A DNA stretch of 64,000 nt from Escherichia coli (GTDB taxonomy: Bacteria; Pseudomonadota; Gammaproteobacteria; Enterobacterales; Enterobacteriaceae). The notes under the pieces were generated by a model. That model was not told where the DNA came from, did no database searches, and was given only the letters and a program-made list of their open reading frames with translations. Of this stretch, positions 15,717-51,323 are shown one piece after another. Each line of letters opens with the position of its first letter. The first letter of the stretch is position 1. Location of the stretch: assembly GCF_041248615.1 (NCBI RefSeq), contig NZ_CP158426.1; one strand, written 5' to 3'. The position numbers were made by a program, and so were the translations under genes.

Positions 15717-15755
15717 AAGGACCGGAGCCGGTCACGGCTCCCTGCACTCAGTCCC

Positions 15756-18475: not shown

Positions 18476-18486
18476 AATAATTCCAC

Positions 18487-18512
18487 TGCCGTCGGTGACG
18501 GCAGTACTTTCG
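18487..18512 (+). terminator. Hairpin downstream of rafD
   Basis: ctgccgtc ggtg acggcag followed by a T-containing tract. Confidence 0.4.
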
Positions 18513-18523
18513 GTTCACCCGTA

Positions 18524-19324: not shown

Positions 19325-19636
19325 GTGTCGGTACAGACTGACCTGTTCCGCCTGACATTCGCCCTGGAAACCATCAGGGAGCAGGGCTGGTGCTGGCGGA
19401 TACTGAGCGACCGGAAATGGGAGGGGCGTAATGTCGTGGTTCCGAACGGGGATGCCGGCAGCTTTTATCTTTCCCGCTCACGTCTTGAGGCGGCATTTGA
19501 TTATCAGGGGAGGTTGCTGCATCCCCTGACCGGCGATGTGTCTGCCCTCGCTGCCCTGCTCCGGAATGCGGGTTGGTATCCAATTCCAGCCGGAACCACG
19601 GATATGGCGATGTTTGAGCTGTCTGTCATCCGCTGA
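19325..19636 (+). CDS. Hypothetical 103-aa protein
   Basis: ORF only; no motif recognised. Confidence 0.3.
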   Translation: MSVQTDLFRLTFALETIREQGWCWRILSDRKWEGRNVVVPNGDAGSFYLSRSRLEAAFDYQGRLLHPLTGDVSALAALLRNAGWYPIPAGTTDMAMFELSVIR

Positions 19637-19665
19637 ATATGACTGATGAAAATCATGGAGTATGA

Positions 19666-20592
19666 ATGAGTACAGTAAAAGTATGGGGTCTCGGTGATGC
19701 CGTGGTGGATTTATTACCGGAGAAGCCGGGCACGCTGTTGCAGTGCCCTGGTGGTGCGCCTGCCAATGTTGCCGTGGGCGTGGCCCGACTGGGGGGCCTG
19801 AGCGGGTTTGTCGGGTGTGTGGGGGATGACCCTTTCGGGCGTTTTATGCGCAAAACCCTGGCTGATGAGGGTGTGGACACGGCGTATATGCATACCGACC
19901 CTCTGTACCGGACTTCCACAGTGGTGGTGTCGCTGGTGCCGGGTGGTGAACGAACCTTCACATTTATGGTGCGCCCTTCGGCAGACCTTTTCCTTACCCC
20001 TGATGATTTACCGCCCTTTCGTGCCGGTGAATGGCTGCATACCTGCTCCAATGCCCTGAGTGCAGAGCCCTGCCGCAGCGCCACGTTTCAGGCCATGGAG
20101 AACATCCGGCAGGCTGGCGGCAGGGTCAGCTTTGACCCCAACATCCGGACTGACCTGTGGCAGAGCACATCGCAACTGCGTGAGTGTCTGCACCGGGCGC
20201 TCATGCTGGCGGATGTGGCAAAGGTATCGGAAGAGGAACTGTTCTTTATCAGCGGTGAACAGGATGTCCGGAAGGGAACCGATGTTCTGGCATCACATTA
20301 TCCCCTGGCACTGCTGCTGGTAACCCAAGGAAAGGATGGCGTGATGGCTCGCTGGCAGGGAAAAAACCTGTACTTCCCGGCAACACCGGTGGTGAGTGTG
20401 GACACGACCGGTGCCGGTGACGCCTTCGTGGCAGGTCTGCTGGCAGCGCTGGCGGCAGAGGGGATGCCCTCCGGTGAGCAGGCACTCGCATCCGTCATCG
20501 AACAGGCCCAGCGCTGTGGTGCGCTTGCCACGACAGCAAAAGGTGCCATGACAGCGTTACCCCGTCGCCAGGATTTACTGAAACACCCCTGA
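19666..20592 (+). CDS. Fructokinase (PfkB/ribokinase family, ScrK/CscK-like)
   Basis: 308 aa; N-terminal VWGLGDAVVDLLPE and C-terminal DTTGAGDAF PfkB signature. Confidence 0.8.
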   Translation: MSTVKVWGLGDAVVDLLPEKPGTLLQCPGGAPANVAVGVARLGGLSGFVGCVGDDPFGRFMRKTLADEGVDTAYMHTDPLYRTSTVVVSLVPGGERTFTFMVRPSADLFLTPDDLPPFRAGEWLHTCSNALSAEPCRSATFQAMENIRQAGGRVSFDPNIRTDLWQSTSQLRECLHRALMLADVAKVSEEELFFISGEQDVRKGTDVLASHYPLALLLVTQGKDGVMARWQGKNLYFPATPVVSVDTTGAGDAFVAGLLAALAAEGMPSGEQALASVIEQAQRCGALATTAKGAMTALPRRQDLLKHP

Positions 20593-20640
20593 CCGTTTCC
20601 TGCCCGTAACCGTTGTGCACGTCATTTTTGTTGCGGGTGA

Positions 20641-22188
<1,548 letters not shown>

Positions 22189-22193
22189 ACACT

Positions 22194-23271: not shown

Positions 23272-23598
23272 ATGACTAAAAATACTCGTTTTTCCCCCGA
23301 AGTCCGTCAGAGGGCGATTCGTATGGTTCTGGAAAGTCAGGGCGAATATGACTCACAGTGGGCGGCAATTTGTTCCATTGCCCCAAAGATTGGCTGTACA
23401 CCGGAGACTCTGCGTGTCTGGGTGCGCCAGCATGAGCGGGATACCGGAGGCGGTGATGGCGGGCTCACCACCGCTGAACGTCAGCGTCTGAAAGAGCTGG
23501 AACGTGAAAATCGTGAACTGCGCCGCAGTAACGATATCCTTCGCCAGGCTTCCGCTTATTTTGCGAAGGTGGAGTTCGACCGCCTCTGGAAAAAGTGA
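23272..23598 (+). CDS. IS629-like OrfA (HTH transposase subunit)
   Basis: 108 aa [21 protein letters not shown]...; leucine-zipper region; overlaps orfB in the -1 frame. Confidence 0.8.
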
Positions 23599-24012
23599 TG
23601 CCACTGCTGGATAAGCTGCGTAAGCTGTACGGGGTCGGACCGGTATGCAGTGAACTACATATTGCCCCGTCAACGTATTACCACTGTCAGCAACAGCGAC
23701 ATCATCCTGATAAACGCAGTGCCCGTGCGCAGCGCGATGACTGGCTGAAGAAAGAGATACTGCGCGTATACGATGGGAATCATCAGGTATACGGTGTGCG
23801 TAAAGTCTGGCGTCAGTTGTTACGGGAAGGAATCAGGGTAGCCAGATGTACAGTGGCGCGCCTCATGGCGGTTATGGGACTTGCCGGTGTTCTCCGGGGT
23901 AAAAAGGTCCGCACTACCGTCAGCCGGAAAGCCGTTGCCGCAGGCGACCGCGTAAACCGTCAGTTTGTGGCAGAACGTCCTGACCAGTTGTGGGTGGCTG
24001 ATTTTACTTACG
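23595..24012 (+). pseudogene. IS629-like OrfB, interrupted after ...QLWVADFTY by a group II intron
   Basis: Transposase homology ends at 24012; intron consensus GTGTG follows at 24013. Confidence 0.7.
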
Positions 24013-26769
<2,757 letters not shown>

Positions 26770-26837
26770 GTGGGTGGTGGTGTTAAGAGCATGCGGTCTG
26801 CGTAAGAGAAAGGGGTGAGCATTTTACGCTGCTGTTG

Positions 26838-26940
26838 CTGCCGGATGCGGCTCGCGCCTTATCCGGCCTATAAATGAGCGTGAAACGCAGGCCTACAAAT
26901 GAGTGTGAAATGTAGGCCTGATAAGCGAAGCGCCATCAGG
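26838..26940. repeat. Cluster of REP-like palindromic units
   Basis: gccggatgcggctcgcgccttatccggcctat and gcaggcctacaaatgagtgtgaaatgtaggcctgataagcgaagcgccatcagg. Confidence 0.6.
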
Positions 26941-27142
26941 AATAAGTGCCAGGTATTACACGCGGAAGTAGCGTGGTGGAATCAACGCGGAAAAGGCGTC
27001 GAACTTCTTCACCATCTTTTTCCAGAACAACATAACAACAATCCTCGATTTGAAACATCGGCGCTATTTTAGTCAGCGCCGACAAATCGTAAAGCCTGTC
27101 GCCTTGTTCCGTTTCTGGGGTGGTATAAACCTTTTTGGTCAC
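26936..27142 (-). CDS. Possible small protein (68 aa) downstream of the lactate permease gene
   Basis: ORF only; hydrophilic composition; could be non-coding. Confidence 0.25.
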   Translation of the reverse strand: MTKKVYTTPETEQGDRLYDLSALTKIAPMFQIEDCCYVVLEKDGEEVRRLFRVDSTTLLPRVIPGTYS

Positions 27143-27190
27143 TGTGTCGTCAAATACGATTGCCGCGAATTTGACGGGGTTGACAATGGC

Positions 27191-28744
27191 TTACGCCATA
27201 AACCAGTAATAAAAGAGACCGACTTTCAGGCCAAGGATCACAATGTAGGCACAGCAGTATTTCATGGTGCCAGACATGATCTGATTGGCCTGACCGTCCA
27301 TTTTGGTGGCAGAAACCGCGATGGCGATGCTTTGCGGCGAAATCATTTTGCCCCCCGTAGCGCCAGAGGTATTGGCCGCCGCCAGCCAGTTGGGATCGAT
27401 ATGTAACTTGCTGGCAGCTATGGTTTGCAGCTTGCCAAACAGAATGTTCGAGTTGGTATCGCTGCCGGTAACGAACGTGCCCAGCGCGCCAATCACCGGG
27501 GCGAGGAAGACGTACGAGCTGCCGGTCAGATCGACAATCGACTGCGCCAGTGTGGAGATAATCCCGCTGAGATCCATCACCGTGGCCAGCGCGACGATCG
27601 CCATAATTGCCACGATAGAGTTTTTAAGCTGGAAAATCGTTTTGATAAATACTTCCAGCATCCCGCGTGCGGACGCTCCCTGAATAAAACCGCCGATAAT
27701 GGTCGCAAAGATAATCAGCATCCCTGGTGTGGTCACCCATTCAACTTTCAGTGCCATCGTTTTGCCGTCAGCCAACGTGAAATGCAGCACCGAAGCCAGT
27801 TGGGATGCCGCGCCTTTTATTGTCGGAAACAGCGGCGAACACAGCAGGATAAACACAAAAATAAACAGATAGATAGAGCCCACGCGGAACAACACTTTTG
27901 CCGAGCGCGGCGTGGTTTCGCGGGTATGGCTGACCTCAATGCGCCACTCTGGATCGGTTTTCCCTTTGCGCAGGCGACTGACCATCGCCACGGCAAACAG
28001 GCTGACCAGGCTACCGGCAAAAGCGGGTAATTCCGCGCCAAGATGGATGGCGACAAAATATTGCGGAATCAGCGTGGAAATGCCGCAAATCAACGTGATC
28101 AGAAATACGCCGCGAATGGCTTTCAGGCCACCGCCAATAATGCAGACAATCACAAACGGCAGCAGGATATTAAACAGCGCGAGCTGCAAAATAATGGTTC
28201 CGCCTAAGGTATAAACCGGCAGATTAACCTGCTCTGCCAGAATAGAAACCGGGATCCCAACCGCGCCAAATGCGGTCGGAACGGTATTTGCTACGAGGGA
28301 AGCAATCGCCGCCTTCAACGGGTTGAATCCCAGCGCAATGAGAATACCGATCGGAATAGCGACCGCCGTGCCATAGCCCGCAGCGGCTTCAAGAAATCCA
28401 CCAAAACACCATGAAATCAGCAGCACCTGAATACGCTTATCTTCGCTAATGCTGGCGAGAATATCGCGCAGAATATCCAGCGCTTTGGTCGCCTGCATGA
28501 CGTTATAACTGAAGATAGCGCCGAGGATAACAATTACGATCGGCCATAGTCCCTTCAGTGCACCATAGCCTATCGCGGCTTTCAAATTTTGTACGGGCAT
28601 TTCCCAGAATATTGCCGATAGTGCAGCGGTGAATACCAAAGAGATCAGTACGGAATAATGGATGGGCATTTTTAATTTCAGTATTAAAAATACCATCAGC
28701 AGCAAAGGAGAGAGTGCCAGAGCAAACATTAAATATTCGTGCAT
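27191..28744 (-). CDS. Lactate permease (LctP family)
   Basis: 517-aa polytopic membrane protein with LctP-family conserved segments; divergent from the dld-like gene. Confidence 0.8.
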   Translation of the reverse strand: MHEYLMFALALSPLLLMVFLILKLKMPIHYSVLISLVFTAALSAIFWEMPVQNLKAAIGYGALKGLWPIVIVILGAIFSYNVMQATKALDILRDILASISEDKRIQVLLISWCFGGFLEAAAGYGTAVAIPIGILIALGFNPLKAAIASLVANTVPTAFGAVGIPVSILAEQVNLPVYTLGGTIILQLALFNILLPFVIVCIIGGGLKAIRGVFLITLICGISTLIPQYFVAIHLGAELPAFAGSLVSLFAVAMVSRLRKGKTDPEWRIEVSHTRETTPRSAKVLFRVGSIYLFIFVFILLCSPLFPTIKGAASQLASVLHFTLADGKTMALKVEWVTTPGMLIIFATIIGGFIQGASARGMLEVFIKTIFQLKNSIVAIMAIVALATVMDLSGIISTLAQSIVDLTGSSYVFLAPVIGALGTFVTGSDTNSNILFGKLQTIAASKLHIDPNWLAAANTSGATGGKMISPQSIAIAVSATKMDGQANQIMSGTMKYCCAYIVILGLKVGLFYYWFMA

Positions 28745-29174
28745 TACAATTCCCGATTTACTTTTTTAGACTGAGCTATATTTATGGGGAAGGAAGCTAC
28801 CTGAATAATAAAATAAAAAATGCTAACTGAATCGCTTCAGTGAAATAAAGTTATAAAGGTTAATAATTGTATAAATAATGTTATTTTTTTATTAAATATG
28901 AATAACCACTAAATATTACAACACCCATTAGAGTTAATCATTAATAGGTATGGGATGATCTTTGCAATAAATAAGTGTTTTGGCATCCCCTCAAAGGGCG
29001 AGGTATGAATTATATGGCGGTGGTAATTTCATTAAAAAATGTGAGCGGTACCGAAAGAAATAAAATGGGGTATTGCATGTGGATATTGATTGAGGGAATA
29101 TTCTGCTTTGTCATACAAATGAACTTATAGCCATTTTCACTGGCCCTGATATAAGGAGCGGAGAGCCGCCCTCC

Positions 29175-30872
29175 ATGAAACATACTGATAATAAGACCTT
29201 TTTGACGACTCTTACCCAATTGGTTGGCCCTGCTCATATCCTCACCGAACCGTCAAAAACTGCGTGTTACCGTAAGGGATTCCGCTCGGGTCAGGGTGAT
29301 GCTCTGGCGGTGGTTATCCCCGGCTCTTTGCTTGAACTCTGGAAAGTCCTCAGCGCCTGCGTTGAGGCTGATAAAATAATCCTGATGCAGGCGTCGAACA
29401 CAGGCCTGACCGAGGGTTCGACGCCAAATGGTAATGACTACGACCGCGAGATCGTCATTATCAGCACGCTGCGGCTGGACAGTCTGCATGTGCTGGATGA
29501 GGGCAAGCAGGTGCTGGCTTATCCGGGCACCACGCTGTACTCGCTGGAAAGGGCGCTGAAGCCGTTTGGCCGTGAGCCGCATTCGGTGATCGGCTCTTCG
29601 TGCATCGGCGCGTCGGTTATCGGCGGTATCTGTAATAACTCGGGCGGTTCTCTGGTCCAGCGAGGCCCGGCTTACACCGAGATGTCGCTGTTTGCCCGCA
29701 TTGATGAACAGGGACGCTTGCAGCTGGTCAATCACCTTGGCATTGAGCTAGGTCAGACGCCAGAGCAAATCCTTGCCCGGCTGGATAACAATGTGATTGA
29801 AGCCGCGCTCGTCAACCATGACGGACGTCACGCGCACGATCACGACTATGTTAGCCGCGTGCGGGACATCAATGCCGACACGCCAGCACGTTACAACGCT
29901 GACCCGGATCGCCTGTTTGAATCCTCTGGCTGCGCGGGCAAGTTAGCGGTGTTTGCCGTACGTCTGGATACCTTTGAAGCCGAGAAGAACCAGCAGGTCT
30001 TTTATATCGGTACCAATCAGACTGATGTCCTGACTGAGATTCGCCGCCACATCCTGGCGAATTTTACAAACCTGCCGGTTGCTGGGGAGTATATGCACCG
30101 CGATATCTATGATATTGCAGAGAAATACAGCAAAGATACCTTCCTGATGATCGACAAACTTGGCACGGACAAAATGCCGTTCTTCTTCAACCTGAAGGGG
30201 CGTACCGAGGCCATACTTGAGAAGGTGAAGATCTTTCGCCCGCACTTTACTGACCGCGCGATGCAGGCTTTTAGCCATCTGTTCCCGAGCCATCTCCCGG
30301 CGCGGATGAAGACCTGGCGCGATAACTATGAACACCATCTGATGTTGAAAATGTCCGGCGAGGGTGTGGCCGAAGCCCAGGCATGGTTAACGGACTATTT
30401 TAAATCGGCCGAGGGCGCGTTCTTTACCTGTACCGCGGAAGAGGGCAGTAAGGCGTTTCTGCATCGTTTTGCCGCCGCGGGTGCTGCCATTCGTTATCAG
30501 GCCGTTCATTCTGACGAGGTTGAGGATATTCTCGCGCTGGATATTGCATTACGCCGCAATGATACCGAATGGTATGAGTATTTACCTGCGGAAATTGACA
30601 GTCAGTTGGTGCATAAACTCTATTACGGCCATTTTATGTGCCATGTATTCCATCAGGATTATATCGTTAAAAAAGGCGTAGATGCCCACGCGTTAAAAGA
30701 ACAGATGCTGGAATTACTGCGCCAACGCGGAGCGCAATATCCGGCGGAACACAATGTCGGCCATCTGTATAAAGCGCCGGAAAATTTGGCACGTTTTTAT
30801 CAGGAAAATGATCCGACCAACACTATGAATCCAGGTATTGGTAAAACCAGCAAACATAAAAACTGGGCATGA
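29175..30872 (+). CDS. dld: FAD-dependent, quinone-linked D-lactate dehydrogenase (Dld-like)
   Basis: 565 aa, collinear with E. coli Dld (DNK.FL..L..LVG..H.LT.P.KTA.YRKGFRSGQGDALAVV...). Confidence 0.85.
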   Translation: MKHTDNKTFLTTLTQLVGPAHILTEPSKTACYRKGFRSGQGDALAVVIPGSLLELWKVLSACVEADKIILMQASNTGLTEGSTPNGNDYDREIVIISTLRLDSLHVLDEGKQVLAYPGTTLYSLERALKPFGREPHSVIGSSCIGASVIGGICNNSGGSLVQRGPAYTEMSLFARIDEQGRLQLVNHLGIELGQTPEQILARLDNNVIEAALVNHDGRHAHDHDYVSRVRDINADTPARYNADPDRLFESSGCAGKLAVFAVRLDTFEAEKNQQVFYIGTNQTDVLTEIRRHILANFTNLPVAGEYMHRDIYDIAEKYSKDTFLMIDKLGTDKMPFFFNLKGRTEAILEKVKIFRPHFTDRAMQAFSHLFPSHLPARMKTWRDNYEHHLMLKMSGEGVAEAQAWLTDYFKSAEGAFFTCTAEEGSKAFLHRFAAAGAAIRYQAVHSDEVEDILALDIALRRNDTEWYEYLPAEIDSQLVHKLYYGHFMCHVFHQDYIVKKGVDAHALKEQMLELLRQRGAQYPAEHNVGHLYKAPENLARFYQENDPTNTMNPGIGKTSKHKNWA

Positions 30873-30946
30873 AATACGAATGAACATTTGTTTGATATCG
30901 CGATATCAAGCGCAATAAACAGAAATGAAGCAATGGAGTAGTTATT

Positions 30947-31666
30947 GTGAATGTAAATTTCTTTGTCACCTGTATTGGTGACGCACTGAAATCACGGATG
31001 GCACGAGACTCCGTATTGCTGCTGGAAAAACTGGGTTGTCGCGTTAATTTCCCCGAGAAGCAAGGGTGTTGCGGTCAGCCAGCCATCAACAGCGGTTACA
31101 TCAAAGAGGCGATCCCCGGGATGAAAAACCTGATCGCCGCGCTGGAAGACAACGACGATCCGATTATCTCCCCGGCGGGCTCCTGCACCTACGCGGTTAA
31201 AAGCTACCCGACGTATCTGGCCGATGAACCGGAATGGGCGCTGCGTGCTGAGAAAGTTTCCGCGCGTATGCAGGATCTCACCTCCTTTATCGTCAACAAA
31301 CTGGGTGTGGTGGACGTTGGTGCCAGCCTGCAGGGCCGCGCTGTGTATCATCCTTCCTGTAGCCTGACCCGCAAACTGGGAGTGAAGGAAGAGCCGCTTA
31401 CGCTGCTGAAAAACGTGCGCGGACTGGAGCTGTTGACGTTTGCCGATCAGGATACCTGTTGCGGCTTTGGCGGGACGTTCTCGGTCAAGATGGCCGAGAT
31501 ATCCGGTGAGATGGTGAAAGAGAAAGTATTACATCTGATGGACGCAAAGCCGGAATTTTTGATTGGCGCAGACGTTAGCTGCCTGCTGAACATTGGCGGT
31601 CGACTGCAACGGGAAGGCCAGCCGGTCAAAGTGATGCATATTGCTGAAGTGCTGATGAGCCGCTGA
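30947..31666 (+). CDS. lutA: Lactate utilisation protein A (YkgE-like; CCG-domain Fe-S oxidoreductase subunit)
   Basis: 239 aa with two cysteine-rich CCG motifs; collinear with K-12 YkgE. Confidence 0.85.
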   Translation: MNVNFFVTCIGDALKSRMARDSVLLLEKLGCRVNFPEKQGCCGQPAINSGYIKEAIPGMKNLIAALEDNDDPIISPAGSCTYAVKSYPTYLADEPEWALRAEKVSARMQDLTSFIVNKLGVVDVGASLQGRAVYHPSCSLTRKLGVKEEPLTLLKNVRGLELLTFADQDTCCGFGGTFSVKMAEISGEMVKEKVLHLMDAKPEFLIGADVSCLLNIGGRLQREGQPVKVMHIAEVLMSR

Positions 31667-33841: not shown

Positions 33842-34300
33842 TTATGCAATCATGCTGATGATCAACACGATTATCAGGCCAACCACGGAGTTTACCAGCT
33901 CCAGCAGACCCCAGGTTTTCAGCGTATCCTTCACCGACAGATCAAAGTAGCCTTTGAACAGCCAGAACGAAGCATCGTTGATATGGGTCAGCGTGTTGGA
34001 GCCAGCCGCTGTTGCCAGCACCAGCAACGCCGGGTCGACGCCCACCAGTTGACCGGTTGCCGGGTCGAGGATTGCTGCGCTAATAATCCTCGCCGCCGTC
34101 ATGGCTGAGACCACGCCCTGACCCGTTGCCAGACGGATCAGCACGGTTATCAACCACGCCATGATGTAGGGAGAAATATTGCCGTGTGACATCAGCATGC
34201 CGATGGTATCGCCGATGCCGGTATCGATAATGGTTTGCTTCAGTACGCCGCCTGCCACTGACTGCCGGAGCAGGGACTGCGCTGACTCTGTAAATCCGCC
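33842..34300 (-). pseudogene. GntP-family permease, C-terminal remnant only (about 150 aa)
   Basis: GntP-like C-terminal segments (IDTGIGD...[22 protein letters not shown]...); homology lost upstream of about 34300; the ORF continues spuriously into IS5. Confidence 0.5.
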
Positions 34301-34436
34301 GCTCTGTACGTTGGGATTGTTAATCCGAGTAACTAAGTAACACGCTATACCTTGACTCCTTATGCTTACATGCTTGCACATCGTTACGGCACAAAATTCA
34401 ACTGTGGCAAAGCAAGTGCGCTGTTGCGTTCTCTTG

Positions 34437-35632
<1,196 letters not shown>

Positions 35633-38600
35633 CTAAATCTTTCCACCCACCCCCTTAAATTTTTCAATAAATGCGCTAATTTTTTGAAAAACAGTCTGTT
35701 TTTTCGTTTTATATTGCGGATTTAAAGGACTGAGTCTGGGCAGTGTCTCGTTTAATTCCGTGCCATTTTCGGTGGCGTATTCGCGTTTTAAAGATGTGCG
35801 AATATAGCGTTTCGCCGCCTCTTCATTGAGATTTTCTTCTTTGATCAAGGCTTCTGCTTCACGTTGCTGTTCGCGTTGAGCAAACGTAAAGAATGCGTCA
35901 ATGATGCTGGCTTTGTCCGGTAAATCATCCAGGTTCGTTTGCTGAATAAAATCGACCACCAGGCCCTCTTTAGCACGGTTCCCCAGGCTTGAACGAATTA
36001 AGCGTTTGACCTCTTCGATCATTTCGCTCTTACCTTTGTTTTGTCTGTTGTGCTCGAAAATCAGACCAAGGATATAATCCAGGTTTATTTCCTGAGATTT
36101 CAGCAAATCGACCTCAAAAACTACGTCATCCCAGTCAGTGGTTGATTTCTCTTTTTTCTCAGCTTCTTTCTCACGGCGCTGCCAGTCGCGAATATCGTTA
36201 TAGGCAGAACGATAATCCTGAATCTTGCGATCAGCAGGGAGACGAATTGTTTGCAATTCAGCGAGCTTTTCATCATCCACATAATGTTCTGCTTTGAATT
36301 TTTCTACTGCAACAGGATCGCTAAGATCGATTTGTTGCAGGGCTTTCAGCGTGGCAAATTCATCATAGTTTTGCAGGATGTTCTCGGCACGCAGGTATTC
36401 ACCAAACAGTTTAACGAAGTCTTTCTTCTCTTTTTCACTTTCAATACTGGCAGGGTCAGGGAACCGTTGTTCCAGTTCTGCAACTACTGCCATAAAGCCG
36501 CGCTTAGCTTCACCAGTAGCAGCATCAGTAAAGCCTTCCATATACTCTGCATAACTCTTTTCTAACACTACATTTTTGGTGTTTTTGTCACCAAACAGCG
36601 TTATGGCATCGATGGTTGAGCGTTCCAGATCGCGGAAAGTGACGATATTACCGAAGGTTTTAGTTGCATCATAAATACGGTTGGTGCGGGAAAATGCCTG
36701 CATCAGGCCGTGAAAACGCAAGTTTTTATCGACGAATAGCGTGTTCAATGTTGGAGCATCGAAACCGGTTAAAAACATCCCCACGACAATTAACAGATCG
36801 ATATCCTGATTTTTAACCCGTTGGGCTAAATCACGATAGTAGTTCTGAAAACCCTTACTGTCGGTGCTGAAGTTAGTTTTAAAATAGCTGTTATACTCAC
36901 GAATTGCAGCGTCAAGAAACTCTTTAGCACTGCTGTCCATTGCGCTGGTATCAAAAGTTTCATCGGATATTTCACCAATCGCATTTTGTTCTTCATTAGC
37001 GGCAAAGGAGAAGATTGTCGCAACACGCAGTGGTTTACAGGTAGTAGATTTATTAGCGGCTTCCTCTTGTAACCGTTTAAACGTCGCGTAATAGGCTTTC
37101 GCGGCATCCACGCTGCTTACTGCCAGCATGGCATTAAAACCTTTGGAGCCAGGGAAAGTACGGTGGGTTTTCTGGCGGAAATTATTCAGAATATATTGCG
37201 TGATTTCCTGAATACGCATGGGATGAAGAAACGCCTGCTGATTTTCAGCCGCACTTAGTTTTTTCTCGTCAGTTTCTGTCTCTAAAGACTTAAACTGTGG
37301 TCGCACATCGTTGTAGTCCACCTTGAATTTGAGCACTTTTTCGTCACGAATCGCATCGGTAATTACATACGAATGCAATTCACGACCAAATACGCTGGCG
37401 GTTGTTTCTGAGCCTAAGGCGTTTTCCGGGAAAATAGGGGTGCCGGTAAAACCAAACTGATAATAGCGTTTGAATTTCTTCTTCAGGTTTTTCTGCGCTT
37501 CTCCAAACTGGCTGCGGTGGCATTCATCAAATATAAACACCACTTGCTGATTATATACAGGCAGGTCGCTTTCTGCTTTCATCAGGTTATTGAGTTTCTG
37601 AATAGTAGTGACGATAATTTTGTTATCGTCCTTATCCAGATTTCGTTTAAGGCCTGCGGTATTTTCCGAGCCGTTGACGCTGTCTGGCGAAAAACGCTGA
37701 TATTCCTTCATGGTCTGGTAATCGAGGTCTTTCCTGTCGACCACAAAGAAGACTTTATCAATAAAGTCCAGCTCTGTTGCCAGACGCGCGGCTTTAAAGC
37801 TGGTGAGGGTTTTACCAGAACCGGTAGTGTGCCAGATATACCCACCGCTTTCCGGTTTTGACCAGTTCTTCGCTGTAAAGGAACTCTTAATTTTCCACAG
37901 AATGCGCTCGGTGGCGGCAATCTGGTACGGTCGCATCACCAGTAGCGTCTGACTACTGTCAAAAACGCTGTAGTTCACCAGAACATTCAGCAGAGTATGT
38001 TTCTGGAAAAAGGTAGCGGTAAAGTCTTTGAGGTCTTTAATCAGCGTGTTGTCTGATTTCGCCCAGTTCATGGTGAAGTCAAAACTGTTTTTATCGCGCT
38101 TTGTTGTGTTGGCAAAATAACGGGTATCGGTGCCGTTAGAAATGACAAACAGTTGCAGATACTTAAACAGAGAATTTTCGCTGTTAAAACTCTCTTTGCT
38201 GTAACGGTGTATCTGGTTGAACGCTTCACGAATCGCCACGCCGCGCTTTTTCAGTTCGATTTGCACCAGCGGCAAGCCATTAACCAGGATCGTGACGTCA
38301 TAACGGTTAGCGTGAGAGCCTGCCTGTTCAAACTGCTGGATAATCTGCACTTTATTGCGCATGAGATTCTTTTTATCTATCAAATAGATGTTCTCAAGAC
38401 GCCCGTCGTCAAAAATAAAGTCGCAGATGTAGTCGATATGAATTTTACGGGTTTTATCCAGGATGCCATCGCTCGGATTATCCAGAAACTGCTCCGTGAA
38501 ACGCCGCCACTCGCTGTCATTAAACACCACACCATTGAGGTTCTGAAGCTGTTCCCGAACGTTGGCCAGCATCGCTGACTGTGATTTTACGGGTATAAAT

Positions 38601-38749
38601 TCATAGCCCTGATTCCGCAGGTCCTGAATCAGTTCACGTTCCAGGTCCGATTCGCTCTGGTAGCTGTCGCCTGTTTGCTCAGCTTTGATGTACTTATCAA
38701 GAACGATAAAGTTATTGGATTCAGCAATGGTGTGTGTTTGATGAGTCAT
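35633..38749 (-). CDS. hsdR: Type I restriction enzyme R subunit (EcoR124-like, Type IC)
   Basis: 1038 aa; Walker A TTGSGKT, DECH box ([10 protein letters not shown]), helicase motifs; same length as EcoR124I HsdR (from memory). Confidence 0.9.
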
Positions 38750-38870
38750 AGCGCATCCTTTGTGCCGTCTGGCAAGGGTCGGAAGGGAGTTAATGGTGAC
38801 TTCCGGCGTGTAAAAAATAGTCTATATACAGACCGGATGTTAAGGTGATCCGGTCTGTAATAATGGTCAA

Positions 38871-40064
38871 TTAATTACTGACAGTTTCAGGTTTCGGGAA
38901 ACTGAACAGTAAATCACGGTAGTACTCGTATTGTTTCTGGCGTAACTCGATTTCACGCGGGAGACCTTCGGTGATGGAGTTGGTCAGGGTGTCGAATTTA
39001 TCGAGAATAGATACAATTCGTTTTTGTTCAGCTATGCATGGAATTGGGATTCGGAACTGTCTAAGATTTGTCAGATTGAGCATTCCATAGTTACGCATTT
39101 CAGATTTAAGTGTATTGTATAAATTTGTCAAGAAATAGAATATGAATTTATCAGTAATAATATTTTCTTTAGTGGACTTTATGCTGGCTATATTTTGATT
39201 GGTTGTTGCTTCAAACTCAAGAAATGCAGTTTTAAATATAGTTGCACCAACAAGTGCGATTAAAGTGGTATTCTTAGGAAGAAGTTTTGCAGTGGATTTT
39301 TTTAATCCTAGCTCGCTTATAAAATCTTTCGCAAAATAAACAGATTCATTATTACATGATTCCGATTTTAACCATGGAATTGACCCATTATCCCAGTATT
39401 CTGCTTTAGATTTTGAGGGGGTTCCTCCAGCGCAAATATGAAATAACTCTTCATTTCCCAAAGTTGTCCAATTAACCTCACCCTCTTTAAAACTCAACAA
39501 CTGGTCGCGATAGTAGTTGTACTGTTTTTTACGCATGTTAAGCTCAGCGGTAAGCTCAGCGGTAAGTGCAGTAAATTTATCCAGAATCCGAACGATTTCA
39601 GACTGGATGGCAAGGGACTTTTCCGGGTTGTCCGGACTAGGAATGGGAACTTTAAATCCTTCCAGCATGGGTTTTCTTATCGAAATGGCGGTAGCACCCA
39701 CACTTTTTGTCAAGATGTACTGCTTAAAGCTAGATGACATGAAGTAATACAAAAACTTCGTGTCTACGGCATTAGTTGTGATACGAATTCTATACGCCCT
39801 TTGATGTAGAGCATATTTCCCCTCAACATAGTGAAATATGTCGCCAATTCCACCTTCACCAGGAATGACTATTGCTACCTCATCAAATTCAAAGGTATCT
39901 GACTTCAAGATATTCTTTGAGCGAACATAGAATGGATAAATTCCATTTTCGCTTTCATCCTGACGATTTGAACTTCCAGTACCGATATCTGCCATAGAAC
40001 CCAATGTTACCCACTCAACCTCAACCCCATCCAACAGTTTTTCCAGATAGCTCAGCTCGCTCAT
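38871..40064 (-). CDS. hsdS: Type I restriction-modification specificity subunit (Type IC; two target-recognition domains with a TAEL-repeat central region)
   Basis: 397 aa; conserved N-terminus [18 protein letters not shown] and central ...[33 protein letters not shown]; second conserved repeat ...[16 protein letters not shown]... Confidence 0.85.
39541..39564. repeat. 12-bp tandem repeat x2 (agctcagcggta) inside hsdS, encoding TAEL-TAEL
   Basis: Two perfect adjacent 12-bp units followed by a diverged third unit (agtgcagtaaat). Confidence 0.85.
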
Positions 40065-41617
40065 TTCTGCACCTCGCAGCCTTCAATTTCAGCCACAATC
40101 GCATCAATATCTTTGCGCAACTGGTCGATTTTGCTGACCGTGGTTTTCAGTTCAGCATTCAGCTCATCGATATCGATAATTTCGCGGTTATCTTTCGCTT
40201 CCACATAGCTGCTCACCGACAGGTTATAGTCATTCGCGACAACGGCTTCGAACGCGACAGATTTTGCCAGATGAGCAACATCTTCCTTGCTGGCAAATAC
40301 CTGCATAATCTGTTCGATATGGGCATCGGTCAGGATATTGTTGTTAGTCTCTTTTTTGAACAGTTCGCTGGCGTCAATAAACTGAACTTTGGTATCCGTT
40401 TTATGTTTAGACAGCACCAGAATATTTACGGCAATGGTGGTGCCAAAGAACAGGTTCGGTGCGAGTGAAATCACGGTTTCGACATAGTTATTGTCGACCA
40501 GATACTGACGGATTTTCTGCTCTGCGCCGCCACGGTAAAAAATACCCGGGAAGCAGACAATCGCAGCACGACCTTTGGCCGAAAGATAGTTCAGCGCATG
40601 TAGTACAAACGCAAAGTCAGCTTTGGATTTGGGGGCCAGAACGCCAGCCGGGGCAAAACGTTCATCGTTAATCAGCGTCGGGTCATCGCTGCCAATCCAT
40701 TTCACCGAATACGGTGGGTTAGATACGATGGCGTCAAACGGTTTTTCATCTCTGAAGTGCGGCTCAGTCAGTGTATTACCCAGCTTGATATCAAACTTGT
40801 CGTAGTTGATATTGTGCAAAAACATGTTCATACGCGCCAGGTTATAGGTCGTATGGTTGATTTCCTGACCGAAAAAGCCTTCTTCGATGATATGGTTATC
40901 AAACTGTTTTTTCGCCTGCAACAACAGTGAGCCGGAACCCGCTGCCGGGTCGTAGATTTTGTTAACGCTGGTCTGCCCGTGCATAGCCAGTTGTGCAATC
41001 AGCCTGGAGACGTGCTGCGGTGTAAAGAACTCACCGCCTGACTTACCGGCATTTGCGGCATAGTTAGAAATCAGGAACTCATAGGCATCGCCGAACAGGT
41101 CAATCTGATGTTCGTTAAAGTCGCCAAGCTTTAACCCTTCAACCCCTTTCAGAACCGCAGCCAGGCGGGCATTTTTATCCTTAACGGTGTTACCCAGGCG
41201 GTTACTGGTGGTATCGAAATCAGCAAACAAACCTTTGATGTCTGCTTCTGAAGGGTAGCCGTAAGCAGAACTTTCGATAGCAACGAAGATGCTGTTTAAA
41301 TCTGCATTCAGTCTGTCATTGGTATTTGCTTTCGCAGCTACGTTGCAGAAAAGCTGACTGGGGTAGATGAAGTAGCCTTTGGTTCTGATGGCATCGTCTT
41401 TAATGTCATCAGTAATTACGCTGTCATCCAGTTTCGCATAACAGATACTGTCATCACCGGCTTCAATATAACTGGAAAAATTTTCGCTGATAAAACGGTA
41501 GAAAAGTGCGCCCAGAACGTATTGCTTAAAATCCCATCCGTCAACAGAACCTCTGACATCATTGGCAATTTGCCATATCTGGCGGTGCAGTTCTGCTCGT
41601 TGTTGAATACTTGTCAT
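40061..41617 (-). CDS. hsdM: Type I restriction-modification N6-adenine DNA methyltransferase subunit
   Basis: 518 aa; motif [11 protein letters not shown], motif IV NPPY (SNPPYSVKW); stop overlaps hsdS start. Confidence 0.9.
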
Positions 41618-41880
41618 TTTTAATCCATTTTCCTGGTTTGGACCTGAATCATTGAGGGCAATTCTACAGCAATCTTGTGGTTCAGGCAGCCCCGGAGTAA
41701 GTCGGTGTACATTGTGAGATACCTGGGGTATTCACGACAAGGAGGAGGAACGGAATATTGCCTTTCCTTTGCAGTGCACCAGGTGCATTCTAAATAATTT
41801 CAGACAGATATTATCTCCGTGAATCCCCCGCCACCTTTCCGGTGCGCGGGGTTTTGTCTTTTTTCACCGGGAATACATGT

Positions 41881-42753
41881 ATGAATCCGTCTGATGCCAT
41901 TGAGGCAATTGAAAAACCACTTTCTTCCCTGCCTTACTCACTTTCCCGTCACATCCTGGAACATCTGCGCAAACTCACCAGCCACGAACCCGTGATTGGC
42001 ATTATGGGGAAAAGCGGGGCCGGTAAATCCTCACTCTGTAATGCACTGTTTCAGGGGGAGGTCACCCCGGTCAGTGATGTTCACGCCGGCACCCGGGAAG
42101 CGCAGCGCTTCCGTCTGAGTGGCCATGGTCACAGCATGGTTATCACTGACCTGCCCGGGGTGGGCGAGAGCCGGGACAGGGATGCAGAGTATGAAGCCCT
42201 GTACCGTGACATTCTGCCTGAACTTGACCTGGTACTGTGGCTGATTAAAGCCGATGACCGTGCCCTGTCTGTGGATGAGTATTTCTGGCGACACATCCTG
42301 CACCGGGGACATCAGCGGGTACTGTTTGTGGTGACGCAGGCCGATAAAACGGAGCCCTGCCATGAATGGGATATGGCCGGTATTCAGCCTTCTCCCGCAC
42401 AGGCACAGAACATTCGCGAAAAAACGGAGGCGGTATTCCGTCTGTTCCGGCCCGTACATCCGGTTGTGGCCGTATCGGCCCGCACCGGCTGGGAACTGGA
42501 TACGCTGGTCAGTGCGCTCATGACAGCACTTCCCGACCATGCCGCCAGTCCCCTGATGACCCGCCTGCAGGACGAGCTGTGCACGGAATCTGTCCGGGGG
42601 CAGGCCCGTGAACAGTTTACCGGTGCGGTGGACCGGATATTTGACACGGCGGAGAGCGTCTGTGTTGCCTCTGTGGCTCGTACGGTTCTGCGTGCCGTCC
42701 GTGACACGGTGGTCTCTGTTGCCCGCGCTGTATGGAACTGGATTTTCTTCTGA
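41881..42753 (+). CDS. YeeP/YkfA/YfjP-like GTPase (ORF open from 41842)
   Basis: G1 motif GIMGKSGAGKSS, G3 DLPG; conserved position immediately upstream of antigen 43 as in CP4-type prophages. Confidence 0.7.
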   Translation: MNPSDAIEAIEKPLSSLPYSLSRHILEHLRKLTSHEPVIGIMGKSGAGKSSLCNALFQGEVTPVSDVHAGTREAQRFRLSGHGHSMVITDLPGVGESRDRDAEYEALYRDILPELDLVLWLIKADDRALSVDEYFWRHILHRGHQRVLFVVTQADKTEPCHEWDMAGIQPSPAQAQNIREKTEAVFRLFRPVHPVVAVSARTGWELDTLVSALMTALPDHAASPLMTRLQDELCTESVRGQAREQFTGAVDRIFDTAESVCVASVARTVLRAVRDTVVSVARAVWNWIFF

Positions 42754-42871
42754 ACACTCTGCCAGGGGAAATGCCTGATTACATTGCGTTAACCAACTGA
42801 AAACATGACACAAACACCTCATACCCACCTCTTTCTCTTGCGTGACTGCCTTGCTGTTAATAGAATAAAAC

Positions 42872-42907
42872 GATCGATAAAACAGGTATCGATCGTTGTA
42901 ATCGATC
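42872..42907. promoter_or_regulatory. Three GATC sites in the agn43 regulatory region (Dam/OxyR phase-variation switch)
   Basis: GATC at 42872, 42891 and 42904 within aacGATCgataaaacaggtatcGATCgttgtaatcGATCgtt, about 220 bp upstream of the antigen 43 start. Confidence 0.6.
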
Positions 42908-43124
42908 GTTTATGGTGGTTAATGGTCTGCGAAAAGGCAGCTGAATCTCTTCATCATGCAGAACGGAATTGCACACAACGGACTGATACTTCTCTGGCGG
43001 ATGAGAGAGGGGAAGCATTTATGTCCGGGAAAAACCACTTTATCTGACCATGCTGTTTTGTACCTGCCGGTATCCACATTTGTGGGTACCGGCTTTTTTA
43101 TTCACCCTCTGTAAGGAAAAGCTG

Positions 43125-45971
43125 ATGAAACGACATCTGAACACCAGCTACAGGCTGGTATGGAATCACATTACGGGCACCCTGGTGGTGGCTTCCGAAC
43201 TGGCCCGCTCACGGGGAAAACGCGCCGGTGTGGCGGTTGCGCTGTCTCTTGCTGCTGTCACGCCAGTCCCGGCACTGGCTGCTGACACGGTTGTAGAGGC
43301 GGGAGAAACCGTGAACGGCGGAACACTGACAAATCATGACAACCAGATTGTCTTCGGTACGACCAACGGAATGACCATCAGTACCGGGCTGGAGTATGGG
43401 ACGGATAACGAGGCCAATACCGGCGGACAATGGATACAAAATGGCGGTATCGCCAACAACACTACTGTCACCGGTGGTGGTCTTCAGAGAGTGAATGCCG
43501 GAGGAAGCGTTTCAGACACGGTTATCAGTGCCGGAGGCGGACAGAGCCTTCAGGGGCAGGCAGTGAACACCACTCTGAACGGCGGTGAGCAGTGGGTACA
43601 TGAAGGCGGGATTGCAACGGGTACCGTCATTAATGAGAAGGGCTGGCAGGCCGTCAAATCCGGCGCAATGGCAACCGACACGGTTGTGAATACCGGCGCG
43701 GAAGGGGGACCGGATGCAGAAAATGGTGATACCGGGCAGTTTGTTCGCGGAAATGCCGTACGTACCACTATCAATGAAAATGGTCGTCAGATTGTGGCTG
43801 CTGAAGGAACAGCAAATACCACTGTGGTTTATGCCGGCGGCGACCAGACTGTACATGGTCACGCACTGGATACTACGCTGAATGGGGGGTACCAGTATGT
43901 GCACAACGGCGGTACGGCGTCTGACACTGTTGTAAACAGTGACGGCTGGCAGATTATCAAGGAAGGTGGTCTGGCGGATTTCACCACCGTTAACCAGAAA
44001 GGCAAACTGCAGGTGAACGCCGGTGGTACCGCCACACATGTCACCCTGAAACAGGGTGGAGCACTGGTCACCAGTACTGCGGCAACGGTTCTTGGCAGCA
44101 ACCGTCTGGGCAATTTCACGGTGGAAAACGGTAAGGCTGACGGCGTTGTTCTGGAGTCCGGCGGTCGCCTGGATGTACTGGAAGGCCATTCAGCGCAGAA
44201 AACACGGGTGGATGACGGCGGAACCCTGGCAGTGTCTGCCGGTGGTAAGGCAACAGGTGTCACCATGACATCCGGTGGTGCCCTGATTGCAGACAGTGGT
44301 GCCACTGTTGAGGGGACCAATGCCAGCGGTAAGTTCAGTATTGATGGCATATCCGGTCAGGCCAGCGGCCTGCTGCTGGAAAATGGCGGCAGCTTTACGG
44401 TTAATGCCGGGGGACAGGCCAGCAACACCACTGTCGGACATCGTGGAACACTGATGCTGGCTGCCGGGGGAAGTCTGAGTGGCAGAACACAGCTCAGTAA
44501 AGGCGCCAGCATGGTACTGAATGGTGATGTGGTCAGTACCGGCGATATTGTTAACGCAGGGGAGATTTACTTTGACAATCAGACAACACCGGATGCCGCG
44601 CTGAGCCGTGCTGTTGCAAAAGGCGACTCCCCGGTAACGTTCCATAAACTGACCACCAGTAACCTCACCGGTCAGGGGGGCACCATCAATATGCGTGTTC
44701 GCCTTGATGGCAGCAATGCCTCTGACCAGCTGGTGATTAATGGTGGCCAGGCAACCGGCAAAACCTGGCTTGCGTTCACAAATGTCGGAAACAGTAACCT
44801 CGGGGTGGCAACCTCCGGACAGGGTATCCGGGTTGTGGATGCACAGAATGGTGCCACCACAGAAGAAGGTGCGTTTGCCCTGAGTCGCCCGCTTCAGGCC
44901 GGTGCCTTTAACTACACCCTGAACCGTGACAGCGATGAAGACTGGTACCTGCGCAGTGAAAATGCTTATCGTGCTGAAGTCCCCCTGTATGCCTCCATGC
45001 TGACACAGGCAATGGACTATGACCGGATTCTGGCAGGCTCCCGCAGCCATCAGACCGGTGTAAACGGTGAAAATAACAGCGTCCGTCTCAGCATTCAGGG
45101 CGGTCATCTCGGTCACGATAACAACGGCGGTATTGCCCGTGGGGCCACGCCGGAAAGCAGCGGCAGCTATGGCTTCGTCCGTCTGGAGAGTGACCTGCTG
45201 AGAACAGAGGTTGCCGGTATGTCTGTGACCGCAGGGGTATATGGTGCTGCTGGCCATTCTTCCGTTGATGTTAAGGATGATGACGGCTCCCGCGCCGGCA
45301 CGGTCCGGGATGATGCCGGCAGCCTGGGCGGATATCTGAATCTGGTACACACGTCCTCCGGCCTGTGGGCTGACATTGTGGCACAGGGAACCCGCCACAG
45401 CATGAAAGCGTCATCGGACAATAACGACTTCCGCGCCCGGGGCTGGGGCTGGCTGGGCTCACTGGAAACCGGTCTGCCCTTCAGTATCACTGACAACCTG
45501 ATGCTGGAACCACAACTGCAGTATACCTGGCAGGGACTCTCCCTGGATGACGGCCAGGATAACGCCGGTTATGTGAAGTTCGGGCATGGCAGTGCACAAC
45601 ATGTGCGTGCCGGTTTCCGTCTGGGCAGCCACAACGATATGAGCTTTGGTGAAGGCACCTCATCCCGTGACACCCTGCGCGACAGTGCAAAACACAGTGT
45701 GAGTGAACTGCCGGTAAACTGGTGGGTACAGCCTTCTGTTATCCGCACCTTCAGCTCCCGGGGTGACATGAGCATGGGTACAGCTGAAGCCGGCAGTAAC
45801 ATGACGTTCTCACCGTCACAGAATGGCACGTCACTGGACCTGCAGGCCGGACTGGAAGCCCGTGTCCGGGAAAATATCACTCTGGGCGTTCAGGCCGGTT
45901 ATGCCCACAGTGTCAGCGGCAACAGCTCTGAAGGCTATAACGGTCAGGCCACGCTGAATGTGACTTTCTGA
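43125..45971 (+). CDS. flu: Antigen 43 self-associating autotransporter adhesin
   Basis: 948-aa product from ATG 43125; extended signal peptide MKRHLNTSYRLVWNHITGTLVVASELARS..., repetitive beta-helix passenger, C-terminal beta-barrel ending ...TLNVTF. Confidence 0.85.
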   Translation: MKRHLNTSYRLVWNHITGTLVVASELARSRGKRAGVAVALSLAAVTPVPALAADTVVEAGETVNGGTLTNHDNQIVFGTTNGMTISTGLEYGTDNEANTGGQWIQNGGIANNTTVTGGGLQRVNAGGSVSDTVISAGGGQSLQGQAVNTTLNGGEQWVHEGGIATGTVINEKGWQAVKSGAMATDTVVNTGAEGGPDAENGDTGQFVRGNAVRTTINENGRQIVAAEGTANTTVVYAGGDQTVHGHALDTTLNGGYQYVHNGGTASDTVVNSDGWQIIKEGGLADFTTVNQKGKLQVNAGGTATHVTLKQGGALVTSTAATVLGSNRLGNFTVENGKADGVVLESGGRLDVLEGHSAQKTRVDDGGTLAVSAGGKATGVTMTSGGALIADSGATVEGTNASGKFSIDGISGQASGLLLENGGSFTVNAGGQASNTTVGHRGTLMLAAGGSLSGRTQLSKGASMVLNGDVVSTGDIVNAGEIYFDNQTTPDAALSRAVAKGDSPVTFHKLTTSNLTGQGGTINMRVRLDGSNASDQLVINGGQATGKTWLAFTNVGNSNLGVATSGQGIRVVDAQNGATTEEGAFALSRPLQAGAFNYTLNRDSDEDWYLRSENAYRAEVPLYASMLTQAMDYDRILAGSRSHQTGVNGENNSVRLSIQGGHLGHDNNGGIARGATPESSGSYGFVRLESDLLRTEVAGMSVTAGVYGAAGHSSVDVKDDDGSRAGTVRDDAGSLGGYLNLVHTSSGLWADIVAQGTRHSMKASSDNNDFRARGWGWLGSLETGLPFSITDNLMLEPQLQYTWQGLSLDDGQDNAGYVKFGHGSAQHVRAGFRLGSHNDMSFGEGTSSRDTLRDSAKHSVSELPVNWWVQPSVIRTFSSRGDMSMGTAEAGSNMTFSPSQNGTSLDLQAGLEARVRENITLGVQAGYAHSVSGNSSEGYNGQATLNVTF

Positions 45972-47206: not shown

Positions 47207-47692
47207 ATGACAACCGTTTTGCATAATTCCACCACATCTTCTGTTTCCGTAACCGCTGTATCAGAGAATAACCCGACTCAACTGGTTGCCACCCTCGTCC
47301 CTGATGAACAGCGCATCAGCTTCTGGCCGCAGCATTTTGGCCTCATTCCACAGTGGGTGACCCTGGAGCCCCGTGTCTTCGGCTGGATGGACCGTCTGTG
47401 CGAAGACTACTGCGGTGGTATCTGGAATCTGTACACCCTGAACAACGGCGGGGCATTTATGGCCCCCGAACCGGATGACGATGATGACGAAACATGGGTA
47501 CTGTTCAGTGCCATGAACGGTAACCGCGCTGAAATGAGCCCGGAAGCTGCCGGTATTGCCGCCTGTCTGATGACGTACAGCCATCATGCCTGTCGTACGG
47601 AGTGTTATGCCATGACGGTCCATTATTACCGTCTGCGGGATTACGCCCTGCAGCATCCGGAATGCAGCGCCATTATGCGTATCATCGACTGA
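47207..47692 (+). CDS. Putative antirestriction protein (YfjX/YafX-like)
   Basis: 161 aa; acidic stretch EPDDDDDE; conserved position upstream of radC-like gene. Confidence 0.5.
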   Translation: MTTVLHNSTTSSVSVTAVSENNPTQLVATLVPDEQRISFWPQHFGLIPQWVTLEPRVFGWMDRLCEDYCGGIWNLYTLNNGGAFMAPEPDDDDDETWVLFSAMNGNRAEMSPEAAGIAACLMTYSHHACRTECYAMTVHYYRLRDYALQHPECSAIMRIID

Positions 47693-51122: not shown

Positions 51123-51198
51123 ATGGTGGCCCCTGTTGGGTTTGAACCAACGACCAAGCGATTATGAGTCGCCTGCTCTAACCACTGAGCTAAGGGGC
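51123..51198 (-). tRNA. ileX: tRNA-Ile2 (anticodon CAU, lysidine-modified), attL side of the island
   Basis: 76-nt cloverleaf GGCCCCTTAGCTCAGTGGTTAGAGCAGGCGACTCATAATCGCTTGGTCGTTGGTTCAAACCCAACAGGGGCCACCA with encoded CCA; K-12 position between mug and yqjH. Confidence 0.9.
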
Positions 51199-51323
51199 CA
51201 TGGTAGCGGATTATAAAGTAACTCCGTGTCGCAATCCAGCCATTACCGCGCGCCTGCTGTTTTTATAAACAATGTATTTTCAATCCGTTATACTTTTCCT
51301 GGTGATGTTAGAAAGGAGTAAAT

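Follow-up and report, generated by a model that had tools for sequence, protein, structure and literature searches.

A Type IC restriction-modification system of the EcoR124 family, complete and probably active, with two TAEL repeat units on a chromosomal island of Escherichia coli

The window, a 64,000-nucleotide stretch of Escherichia coli DNA that the comparisons and annotation used here equate with strain NRZ14408 (NZ_LT599825.1), carries the three genes of a Type I restriction-modification (R-M) system on its minus strand. The open reading frame (ORF) map gives the order M-S-R, with hsdM (40061-41617) encoding an m6A methyltransferase subunit of 518 aa, hsdS (38871-40064) a specificity subunit of 397 aa, and hsdR (35633-38749) a translocase and endonuclease subunit of 1038 aa. 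The hsdM stop codon overlaps the hsdS start in an ATGA, and hsdR is set apart from hsdMS by a spacer of 121 bp (38750..38870, minus strand) that holds no extra gene. The gap is too short for a prrC-like insertion, which is therefore rejected. A reading of the spacer sequence finds a hairpin with an 11-bp stem (38828-38858), and a promoter scan marks a promoter-like TTAACA-18-TATTTT on the minus strand (38843..38814). The promoter and terminator scan returned no signal above chance and no enrichment over shuffles. In EcoR124I, hsdR has its own separate promoter, and the promoter-like site in the spacer is consistent with such an arrangement here. Directly downstream of hsdR, annotation places an IS5-like transposase of the ISKpn26 family (34505..35485, plus strand). 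The same IS5-hsdR junction occurs in strains ET210, TUM18530 and TUM18780, whose outer flanks differ, and the transposase is conserved cassette context, outside the R-M system proper. The locus itself sits in a chromosomal island of ~48 kb beside tRNA-Ile, and the cassette is intact in ~446 complete genomes.

HsdM scores 650 bits against NCBIfam TIGR00497 (hsdM; cut-off 243) and is identical to EcoR124 HsdM (PDB 7bst_D) at 512 of 518 positions (98.8%), while HsdM of the Type IA enzyme EcoKI gives just 64 bits. Its motifs are present, namely FFTP at 197, the SAM-binding DPAAGSG at 223 and NPPY at 300. HsdR scores 762 bits against TIGR00348, far above the cut-off, and 2,263 bits against EcoR124I HsdR (2w00_A) across residues 1-1038; the two proteins are ~98% identical, with ~19 differences within the first 1,010 residues. 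The nuclease residues D151, E165 and K167 are intact, as are helicase motifs I (GSGKT at 310) and II (DECH at 408). The original prediction of a complete hsdM-hsdS-hsdR system with an HsdR of 1038 aa is thus borne out by three intact ORFs, full-length matches and the presence of the catalytic motifs. Type I families were defined by cross-hybridization, antibody cross-reaction and complementation, and the degree of relatedness seen for HsdM and HsdR places both subunits within the Type IC (EcoR124) family. At 98-99% identity, the subunits would be expected to be interchangeable with those of EcoR124I in vivo.

HsdS combines a conserved framework with divergent recognition domains. The whole protein matches EcoR124 HsdS (7bst_A) over its full length with 327 bits and the PADLOC Specificity_I model with 439 bits. 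Its N-terminal conserved region (aa 1-18; 40011..40064, this and the following regions on the minus strand) shares 17 of 18 residues with EcoR124 (94%), in agreement with the Type IC N-terminus originally proposed. The central conserved, coiled-coil region (aa 141-197; 39474..39644) shares 56 of 57 residues (98%) and the C-terminal conserved region (aa 345-397; 38874..39032) 50 of 53 (94%). Between them lie the two target-recognition domains (TRDs): TRD1 (aa 19-140; 39645..40010), the predicted reader of the 5' half-site, and TRD2 (aa 198-344; 39033..39473), the predicted reader of the 3' half-site. TRD1 is only 14% identical to TRD1 of EcoR124 and 21% to TRD1 of the system on plasmid pIP1206; TRD2 is 31% identical both to TRD2 of EcoR124 and to TRD1 of pIP1206, and it also resembles both domains of the Methanocaldococcus jannaschii S subunit 1YF2. 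The domains had been expected to differ from those of EcoR124I, and they do so to a degree that implies half-sites other than GAA/RTCG; relative to the characterized family members compared, the predicted half-sites also differ from CCAG/RTTG.

Both domains recur in other company. In other HsdS proteins of enterobacteria, TRD1 recurs with 100% identity next to no fewer than 10 different TRD2s, and copies of TRD2 that are 97-100% identical are joined to at least eight different TRD1s. New specificities thus also arise by exchange of whole recognition-domain modules. The recognized sequence, proposed at the outset to be probably new, would differ from those of the characterized enzymes compared, but both TRDs are common modules of enterobacterial hsdS genes and may already have REBASE assignments. 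A recognition motif was sought by several routes. Database names of HsdS were generic only, and a literature search found no methylome paper for NRZ14408. The Type I systems of ST131 belong to other families. RM.EcoST101IX of pIP1206 truly belongs to the family and its motif has been published, but neither of its domains exceeds 31% identity to those of the window. Among solved structures, matches are limited to EcoR124 HsdS and M. jannaschii 1YF2, both too distant for specificity to be transferred.

The central region of hsdS also contains a tandem repeat. Two and only two copies of the 12-bp unit AGCTCAGCGGTA are present, at plus-strand positions 39541-39564, as had been read from the sequence at the outset. 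In codon register the two tandem units, which encode TAEL-TAEL (aa 168-175) and constitute the spacer-length determinant, occupy 39540..39563 on the minus strand; the coordinates first given, 39541..39564, are one base off this register, without consequence. Tandem Repeats Finder reports the repeat at 39539-39566 (period 12, 2.3 copies, 100% matches, score 56), and an exact tandem duplication of 12+12 bp did not arise in any of 2,000 shuffled versions of the 6-kb region. The repeat DNA also matches the primers used for deleting one TAEL unit of EcoR124II (PMC10644984).

The relation between TAEL copy number and spacer length has been set out previously (PMC3874165; table in PMC12707154), and a 1-bp shift of the spacer per change in copy number has been established for EcoR124 and EcoDXXI hybrids (PMC3874165). 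Deletion of one unit changes which phages are restricted by EcoR124 (PMC10644984). The original formulation, in which two copies give N6 and three give N7, holds as this published rule but not as a rule for the written N count, as the pIP1206 system has three copies yet recognizes CCAGN6RTTG. What the copy number fixes is how far apart the methylated adenines lie, with 7 or 8 bp between them.

Natural copy-number variants of otherwise near-identical loci, which had been suggested as something to look for, do exist. Over 9.1 kb (window positions 34291-43448), ET210 shows zero substitutions and one extra 12-bp unit, for a total of three TAEL units. Over 20 kb, the sole differences between TUM18530 and TUM18780 are a SNP and a single TAEL unit. 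In a further pair of HsdS proteins, one with two copies and one with a single copy, P0049 (374 aa) is P0021 (378 aa) minus exactly one unit. The ET210 assembly calls for some caution. Annotation calls its hsdR and hsdM frameshifted, owing to two deletions within C5 and T6 homopolymer runs, at the equivalents of window positions 35650 and 40907; these are most likely assembly errors, given their homopolymer location and the other scattered 1-bp indels, several in 13 kb. The same indels, and the lack of the 401-aa ET210 HsdS from a large protein collection, could be taken to mean that the third TAEL unit is itself an artefact and that the window allele has no natural variant. We consider this very improbable: what is inserted is exactly one 12-bp unit, unlike a homopolymer error, the 401-aa protein carries its own non-redundant RefSeq accession (WP_165472422.1), and the TUM and P0049/P0021 pairs show the same kind of change independently.

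To place these variants in context, TAEL copies were counted across 5,426 complete genomes with queries of one, two and three copies, under E-value cut-offs that only an uninterrupted full-length match could pass. In a census lacking such strict cut-offs, overlapping pieces were joined, so that two-copy loci seemed to cover the three-copy query fully, and it was discarded. The strict census finds two copies in 607 records, three in 411 and one in 5, with ~68 of the 1,091 matching records falling in no class, having at least four copies or else divergent flanks. About one complete E. coli genome in four carries a Type IC hsdS sequence, on chromosomes and plasmids alike, and the family is therefore widespread.

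The exact HsdS protein of the window (P0001) is found on 42 contigs and a V197I variant (P0002) on 170; ~215 contigs carry the two-copy form of this allele. Exact look-up in the protein collection returned no one-, three-, four- or five-copy form of the allele, and ET210 has the only three-copy form seen. Moreover, the proteins that share TRD1 or TRD2, among the best 120, all have two copies or fewer, and copy number thus tracks allele and lineage. These distributions bear on whether the repeat could be a fast, reversible, phasevarion-like switch that maintains two- and three-copy subpopulations in each culture. The known near-isogenic pairs (two of two and three copies, one of two and one) and the abundance of both main states across E. 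coli would suit such a switch, but two 12-bp units are a poor substrate for slippage, and neither the constancy of the window allele nor the dependence of copy number on lineage would be expected, so that we think it quite improbable. From the ~215 contigs with the two-copy form and the absence of other forms from the protein collection, copy-number switching appears instead to be sporadic, on an evolutionary timescale. The claim that slippage switches specificity is accordingly upheld as far as natural two- and three-copy versions of otherwise identical loci are concerned; slippage itself, or unequal crossing-over, is the mechanism we infer, and it would act only rarely in the window allele.

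A broader interpretation can be offered tentatively, at somewhat less than even odds. The chromosomal Type IC cassette (IS5-hsdR-hsdS-hsdM-GTPase) may diversify specificity within clones through gain or loss of one TAEL unit, such that near-identical strains (TUM18530 and TUM18780, or those with the NRZ14408 and ET210 loci) would come to differ in methylome, each restricting the DNA of the other. Selection on a two-state switch, alongside domain shuffling, would then explain why ~60% of loci have two copies, 40% three and <1% one.

By analogy with EcoR124I, the target should be bipartite, with one adenine per half methylated by the M2S1 complex, and R2M2S1 should translocate and cut DNA bearing unmodified targets. 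The two half-sites would be set by TRD1 and TRD2, and the separation of these domains by the pair of TAEL units within the central coiled coil. By extrapolation from other domain pairs, 7 bp are predicted to separate the methylated adenines, the EcoR124I geometry for which N6 is the usual notation. Adding or removing one 12-bp unit would shift this spacing by 1 bp and specificity would therefore change.

Whether restriction is exerted at full strength may depend on a neighbor. The same island encodes a close ArdB homolog (331 bits to 2WJ9) ~5.6 kb from hsdM, and ArdB-family proteins act in vivo to block Type I restriction while leaving modification unaffected (PMC12707154); restriction could for this reason be damped. 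Carried further, the system might be cryptic, that is, present but not restricting, whether through inhibition by the ArdB homolog, through restriction alleviation or through want of expression, the last in keeping with a promoter scan devoid of significant signal. This seems unlikely to us in view of three full-length ORFs with intact motifs, 98-99% identity to an enzyme known to be active, the preservation of the cassette in so many complete genomes and the methylation by the close relative on pIP1206 of its own site in vivo. The reading we favor, to which we assign a probability of roughly 0.8, is that the island carries a complete and probably active Type IC R-M system of the EcoR124 family, with an adenine spacing set by TAEL units that are sporadically gained or lost.

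The mechanism of such a system is a textbook one and only its allelic form is new, which leaves the understanding of Type I enzymes unchanged. For a multidrug-resistant clinical isolate, an m6A motif and a restriction barrier specific to the strain can be predicted from it, which is of modest practical value; we take NRZ14408 to be a carrier of mcr-1 and KPC-2. The natural isogenic two- and three-copy pairs are ready material, beyond the R124 plasmids, for asking if, with other domain pairs, a single TAEL unit moves specificity by exactly 1 bp, and they could also reveal how frequently units change in the wild.

Several characterized systems invite comparison. RM.EcoST101IX (Eco067II) on pIP1206, which recognizes CCAG N6 RTTG, has HsdM and HsdR proteins 99.0% and 97.8% identical to those of the window, along with the same gene lengths and hsdS-hsdR spacer length. 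It differs in its three TAEL units, in its recognition domains and in being plasmid-borne, within an IS1-flanked transposon. EcoDXXI (TCA N7 RTTC) and EcoprrI (CCA N7 RTGC) are Type IC systems with central TAEL repeats like that of the window (PMC3874165), but with three units each; the EcoprrI locus, moreover, embeds prrC, in contrast to the short, gene-free gap described here. EcoR124I (plasmid R124; GAA N6 RTCG) shares the order M-S-R, an HsdR of the same length, a nearly identical HsdM, an HsdS framework of 94-98% identity and two TAEL units with identical repeat DNA. With 14% and 31% identity, its TRDs are unrelated to those of the window as far as specificity is concerned, and it resides on an IncF plasmid, whereas the window system is chromosomal. 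EcoR124II (EcoR124/3; GAA N7 RTCG) is the three-unit sister of EcoR124I, from which the window differs in its two-unit state and its predicted half-sites. The relation between the NRZ14408 and ET210 loci, one extra 12-bp unit, mirrors that between EcoR124I and EcoR124II.

The genes hsdM (40061-41617, 518 aa), hsdS (38871-40064, 397 aa) and hsdR (35633-38749, 1038 aa) are three neighbouring open reading frames on the minus strand. The stop codon of hsdM overlaps the start codon of hsdS within ATGA, and hsdS is separated from hsdR by a gap of 121 bp, including a hairpin with an 11-bp stem and one promoter-like site from a promoter scan that overall performed at chance level. The NCBIfam models for hsdM and hsdR score well over their cut-offs, and PADLOC assigns HsdM, HsdS and HsdR as Type I components. 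HsdR aligns with EcoR124I HsdR (2w00) over residues 1-1038 (2,263 bits), residues 1-1,010 containing about 19 differences, and HsdM differs from EcoR124 HsdM (7bst_D) at 6 of 518 positions. The nuclease residues D151/E165/K167 and helicase motifs GSGKT and DECH of HsdR are intact, as are the methyltransferase motifs DPAAGSG and NPPY of HsdM. The complete system with a 1038-aa HsdR described in the original prediction is thereby borne out, and the motifs checked reveal no inactivating change in hsdM or hsdR, the finding named there as counting against it. The framework of HsdS is 94% (N-terminal), 98% (central) and 94% (C-terminal) identical to EcoR124 HsdS (7bst_A), in keeping with the predicted Type IC N-terminus, and the two target-recognition domains differ from those of EcoR124, as had been proposed (14% identity for TRD1, 31% for TRD2). 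Judged by sequence comparison, the window system is a member of the Type IC family with a different recognition-domain pair.

The 12-bp unit AGCTCAGCGGTA has exactly two occurrences, at 39541-39564; read in codon register (39540-39563), the repeat encodes TAEL-TAEL at HsdS residues 168-175. The copy number given by Tandem Repeats Finder is 2.3, with 100% identity, and an exact 12+12-bp duplication arose in 0 of 2,000 shuffles, which together confirm the two-copy repeat. A second 12-bp tandem repeat, imperfect (1.9 copies, 90%), lies inside hsdR at 36151-36173 in a lysine- and glutamate-rich stretch; it is probably trivial and has no known role.

The hsd cassette belongs to an island of roughly 48 kb that runs between a tyrosine integrase (approximately 2950-4266) and tRNA-Ile (51127-51199), the latter beside mug and rpoD. 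Besides genes for the utilisation of raffinose/sucrose and lactate, the island carries Ag43, remnants of IS elements and a CP4-like module consisting of DUF932, ArdB, a JAB/RadC-like protein and YeeU/CbtA. In 23272-26761, an IS3-family transposase gene, in which the ALIL frameshift pseudoknot (23553-23669) can still be made out, is split by a group II intron that has ltrA at 24684-26192 and an Rfam intron domain at 26196-26282. On the hsdR side of the cassette, in the region 33842-35658, a GntP-family permease gene is cut short by an IS5-like (ISKpn26) element, the end of which lies about 150 bp away from the hsdR stop. The annotated 63-aa "hypothetical protein" (35467-35658) extends across this end and the 3' end of hsdR, and seems to be an artefact of annotation. 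Because the IS5-hsdR junction recurs in strain ET210 and the TUM strains while the outer flanks differ, the element travels together with the cassette. On the other side are a YeeP-like GTPase gene (41842-42753, plus strand), which PADLOC matches weakly to LeoBC (E = 3e-7), and Ag43, with an Rfam "IS102 RNA" match between them (72 bits, 42870-43106, plus strand). After the corresponding GTPase gene, the TUM strains have dynamin-family, RdcB-family and patatin-like genes (4164-7650 of that locus), so that the surroundings of the cassette may be a neighbourhood of defence genes. Approximately 5.6 kb from the Type I system, the same island carries a close homologue of the antirestriction protein ArdB (47207-47692, plus strand), which matches PDB 2WJ9 of E. 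coli CFT073 at 331 bits and KlcA at 76 bits. Since members of the ArdB family are inhibitors of Type I restriction in vivo (PMC12707154), there is room for restriction by the window system to be damped.

The original prediction also held that slippage of the repeat switches specificity. Variants differing by one unit do exist, and these natural isogenic copy-number pairs are the most useful by-product of the analysis. ET210 (NZ_CP100987.1) carries this cassette in the same context, with no substitutions against window positions 34291-43448 (9.1 kb), and differs by one added 12-bp unit (TAEL x3, a 401-aa HsdS) and by single-base indels. The latter, five in 13 kb with at least two in homopolymers (window equivalents 35554, 35650, 40907, 41859 and 43009), account for the RefSeq frameshift flags on ET210 hsdR and hsdM; as the causal indels, in C5 and T6 runs, occur amid other scattered 1-bp indels, they are probably long-read assembly or sequencing errors. 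Next to the identical hsd cassette, Ag43 shows about 70 substitutions in 1.8 kb (43449-45230) between ET210 and the window strain NRZ14408, which indicates recombination or hypervariability of the adhesin passenger domain. TUM18530 and TUM18780, near-identical genomes with a 30-bp length difference, carry another allele of the cassette; over 20 kb, one TAEL unit and a single SNP inside IS5 set them apart. Likewise, a 374-aa HsdS of another allele (P0049) equals a 378-aa protein found on 155 contigs (P0021) less exactly one unit.

A survey of 5,426 complete E. coli genomes relied on diagnostic queries, at E-value cut-offs passable only by an uninterrupted match; the 1,091 records matching the region were classed for one, two and three copies only, giving two copies in 607 records (325 chromosomal and 291 plasmid places), three in 411 (126 and 288) and one in 5 (4 and 1). 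The 6.5-kb cassette with flanks occurs in about 446 genomes, and the window domain pair in only two complete genomes. The exact two-copy HsdS was counted on 42 contigs, against 170 for the V197I variant; a collection of 15 billion proteins contains no one-, three-, four- or five-copy form of either. Among the best 120 relatives, every protein with TRD1 or TRD2 has at most two units. As far as these sequences indicate, therefore, TAEL switching is infrequent and copy number mostly follows the allele, with sporadic changes; the variation is evolutionary diversification, not fast phase variation.

Copies of TRD1 at 100% identity are joined to at least 10 different TRD2s, and copies of TRD2 at 97-100% identity to at least 8 different TRD1s, in proteins from chromosomes and plasmids of E. 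coli, Klebsiella, Salmonella and other species; by this distribution both domains are common modules. Database names, searched for a recognition motif, were generic only, and a literature search found no methylome for NRZ14408; further leads from published work gave no motif either. The family members EcoR124 and RM.EcoST101IX (plasmid pIP1206) were rejected as sources of the half-sites, as their domains are unrelated.

The relation between copy number and spacer, as originally proposed, stands on EcoR124I (two units, GAA N6 RTCG) and EcoR124II (three units, GAA N7 RTCG); EcoDXXI and EcoprrI have three units each (PMC3874165; table in PMC12707154). Removing one unit from EcoR124II alters the set of restricted phages (PMC10644984), and the window repeat DNA exactly matches mutagenesis primers from that study. 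What copy number fixes, however, is not the N count itself but the distance between the two methylated adenines, which is 7 bp with two units and 8 bp with three (PMC12707154). RM.EcoST101IX of plasmid pIP1206, with HsdM 99.0% and HsdR 97.8% identical to those of the window, has three units, unlike the two of the window, yet its published motif, CCAGN6RTTG, is written N6 because the first half-site is 4 bp long. On this rule the adenine spacing of the window system is predicted to be 7 bp, usually but not necessarily written N6. The sugar cluster of the island (12486-22189: regulator, alpha-galactosidase, MFS transporter, GH32 hydrolase and porin) has the gene order of pIP1206 23912-31503, a plasmid that also has a Type IC system, which suggests mobile cargo shared between F plasmids and the island. 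The window system is a new allele of a thoroughly known kind of system.
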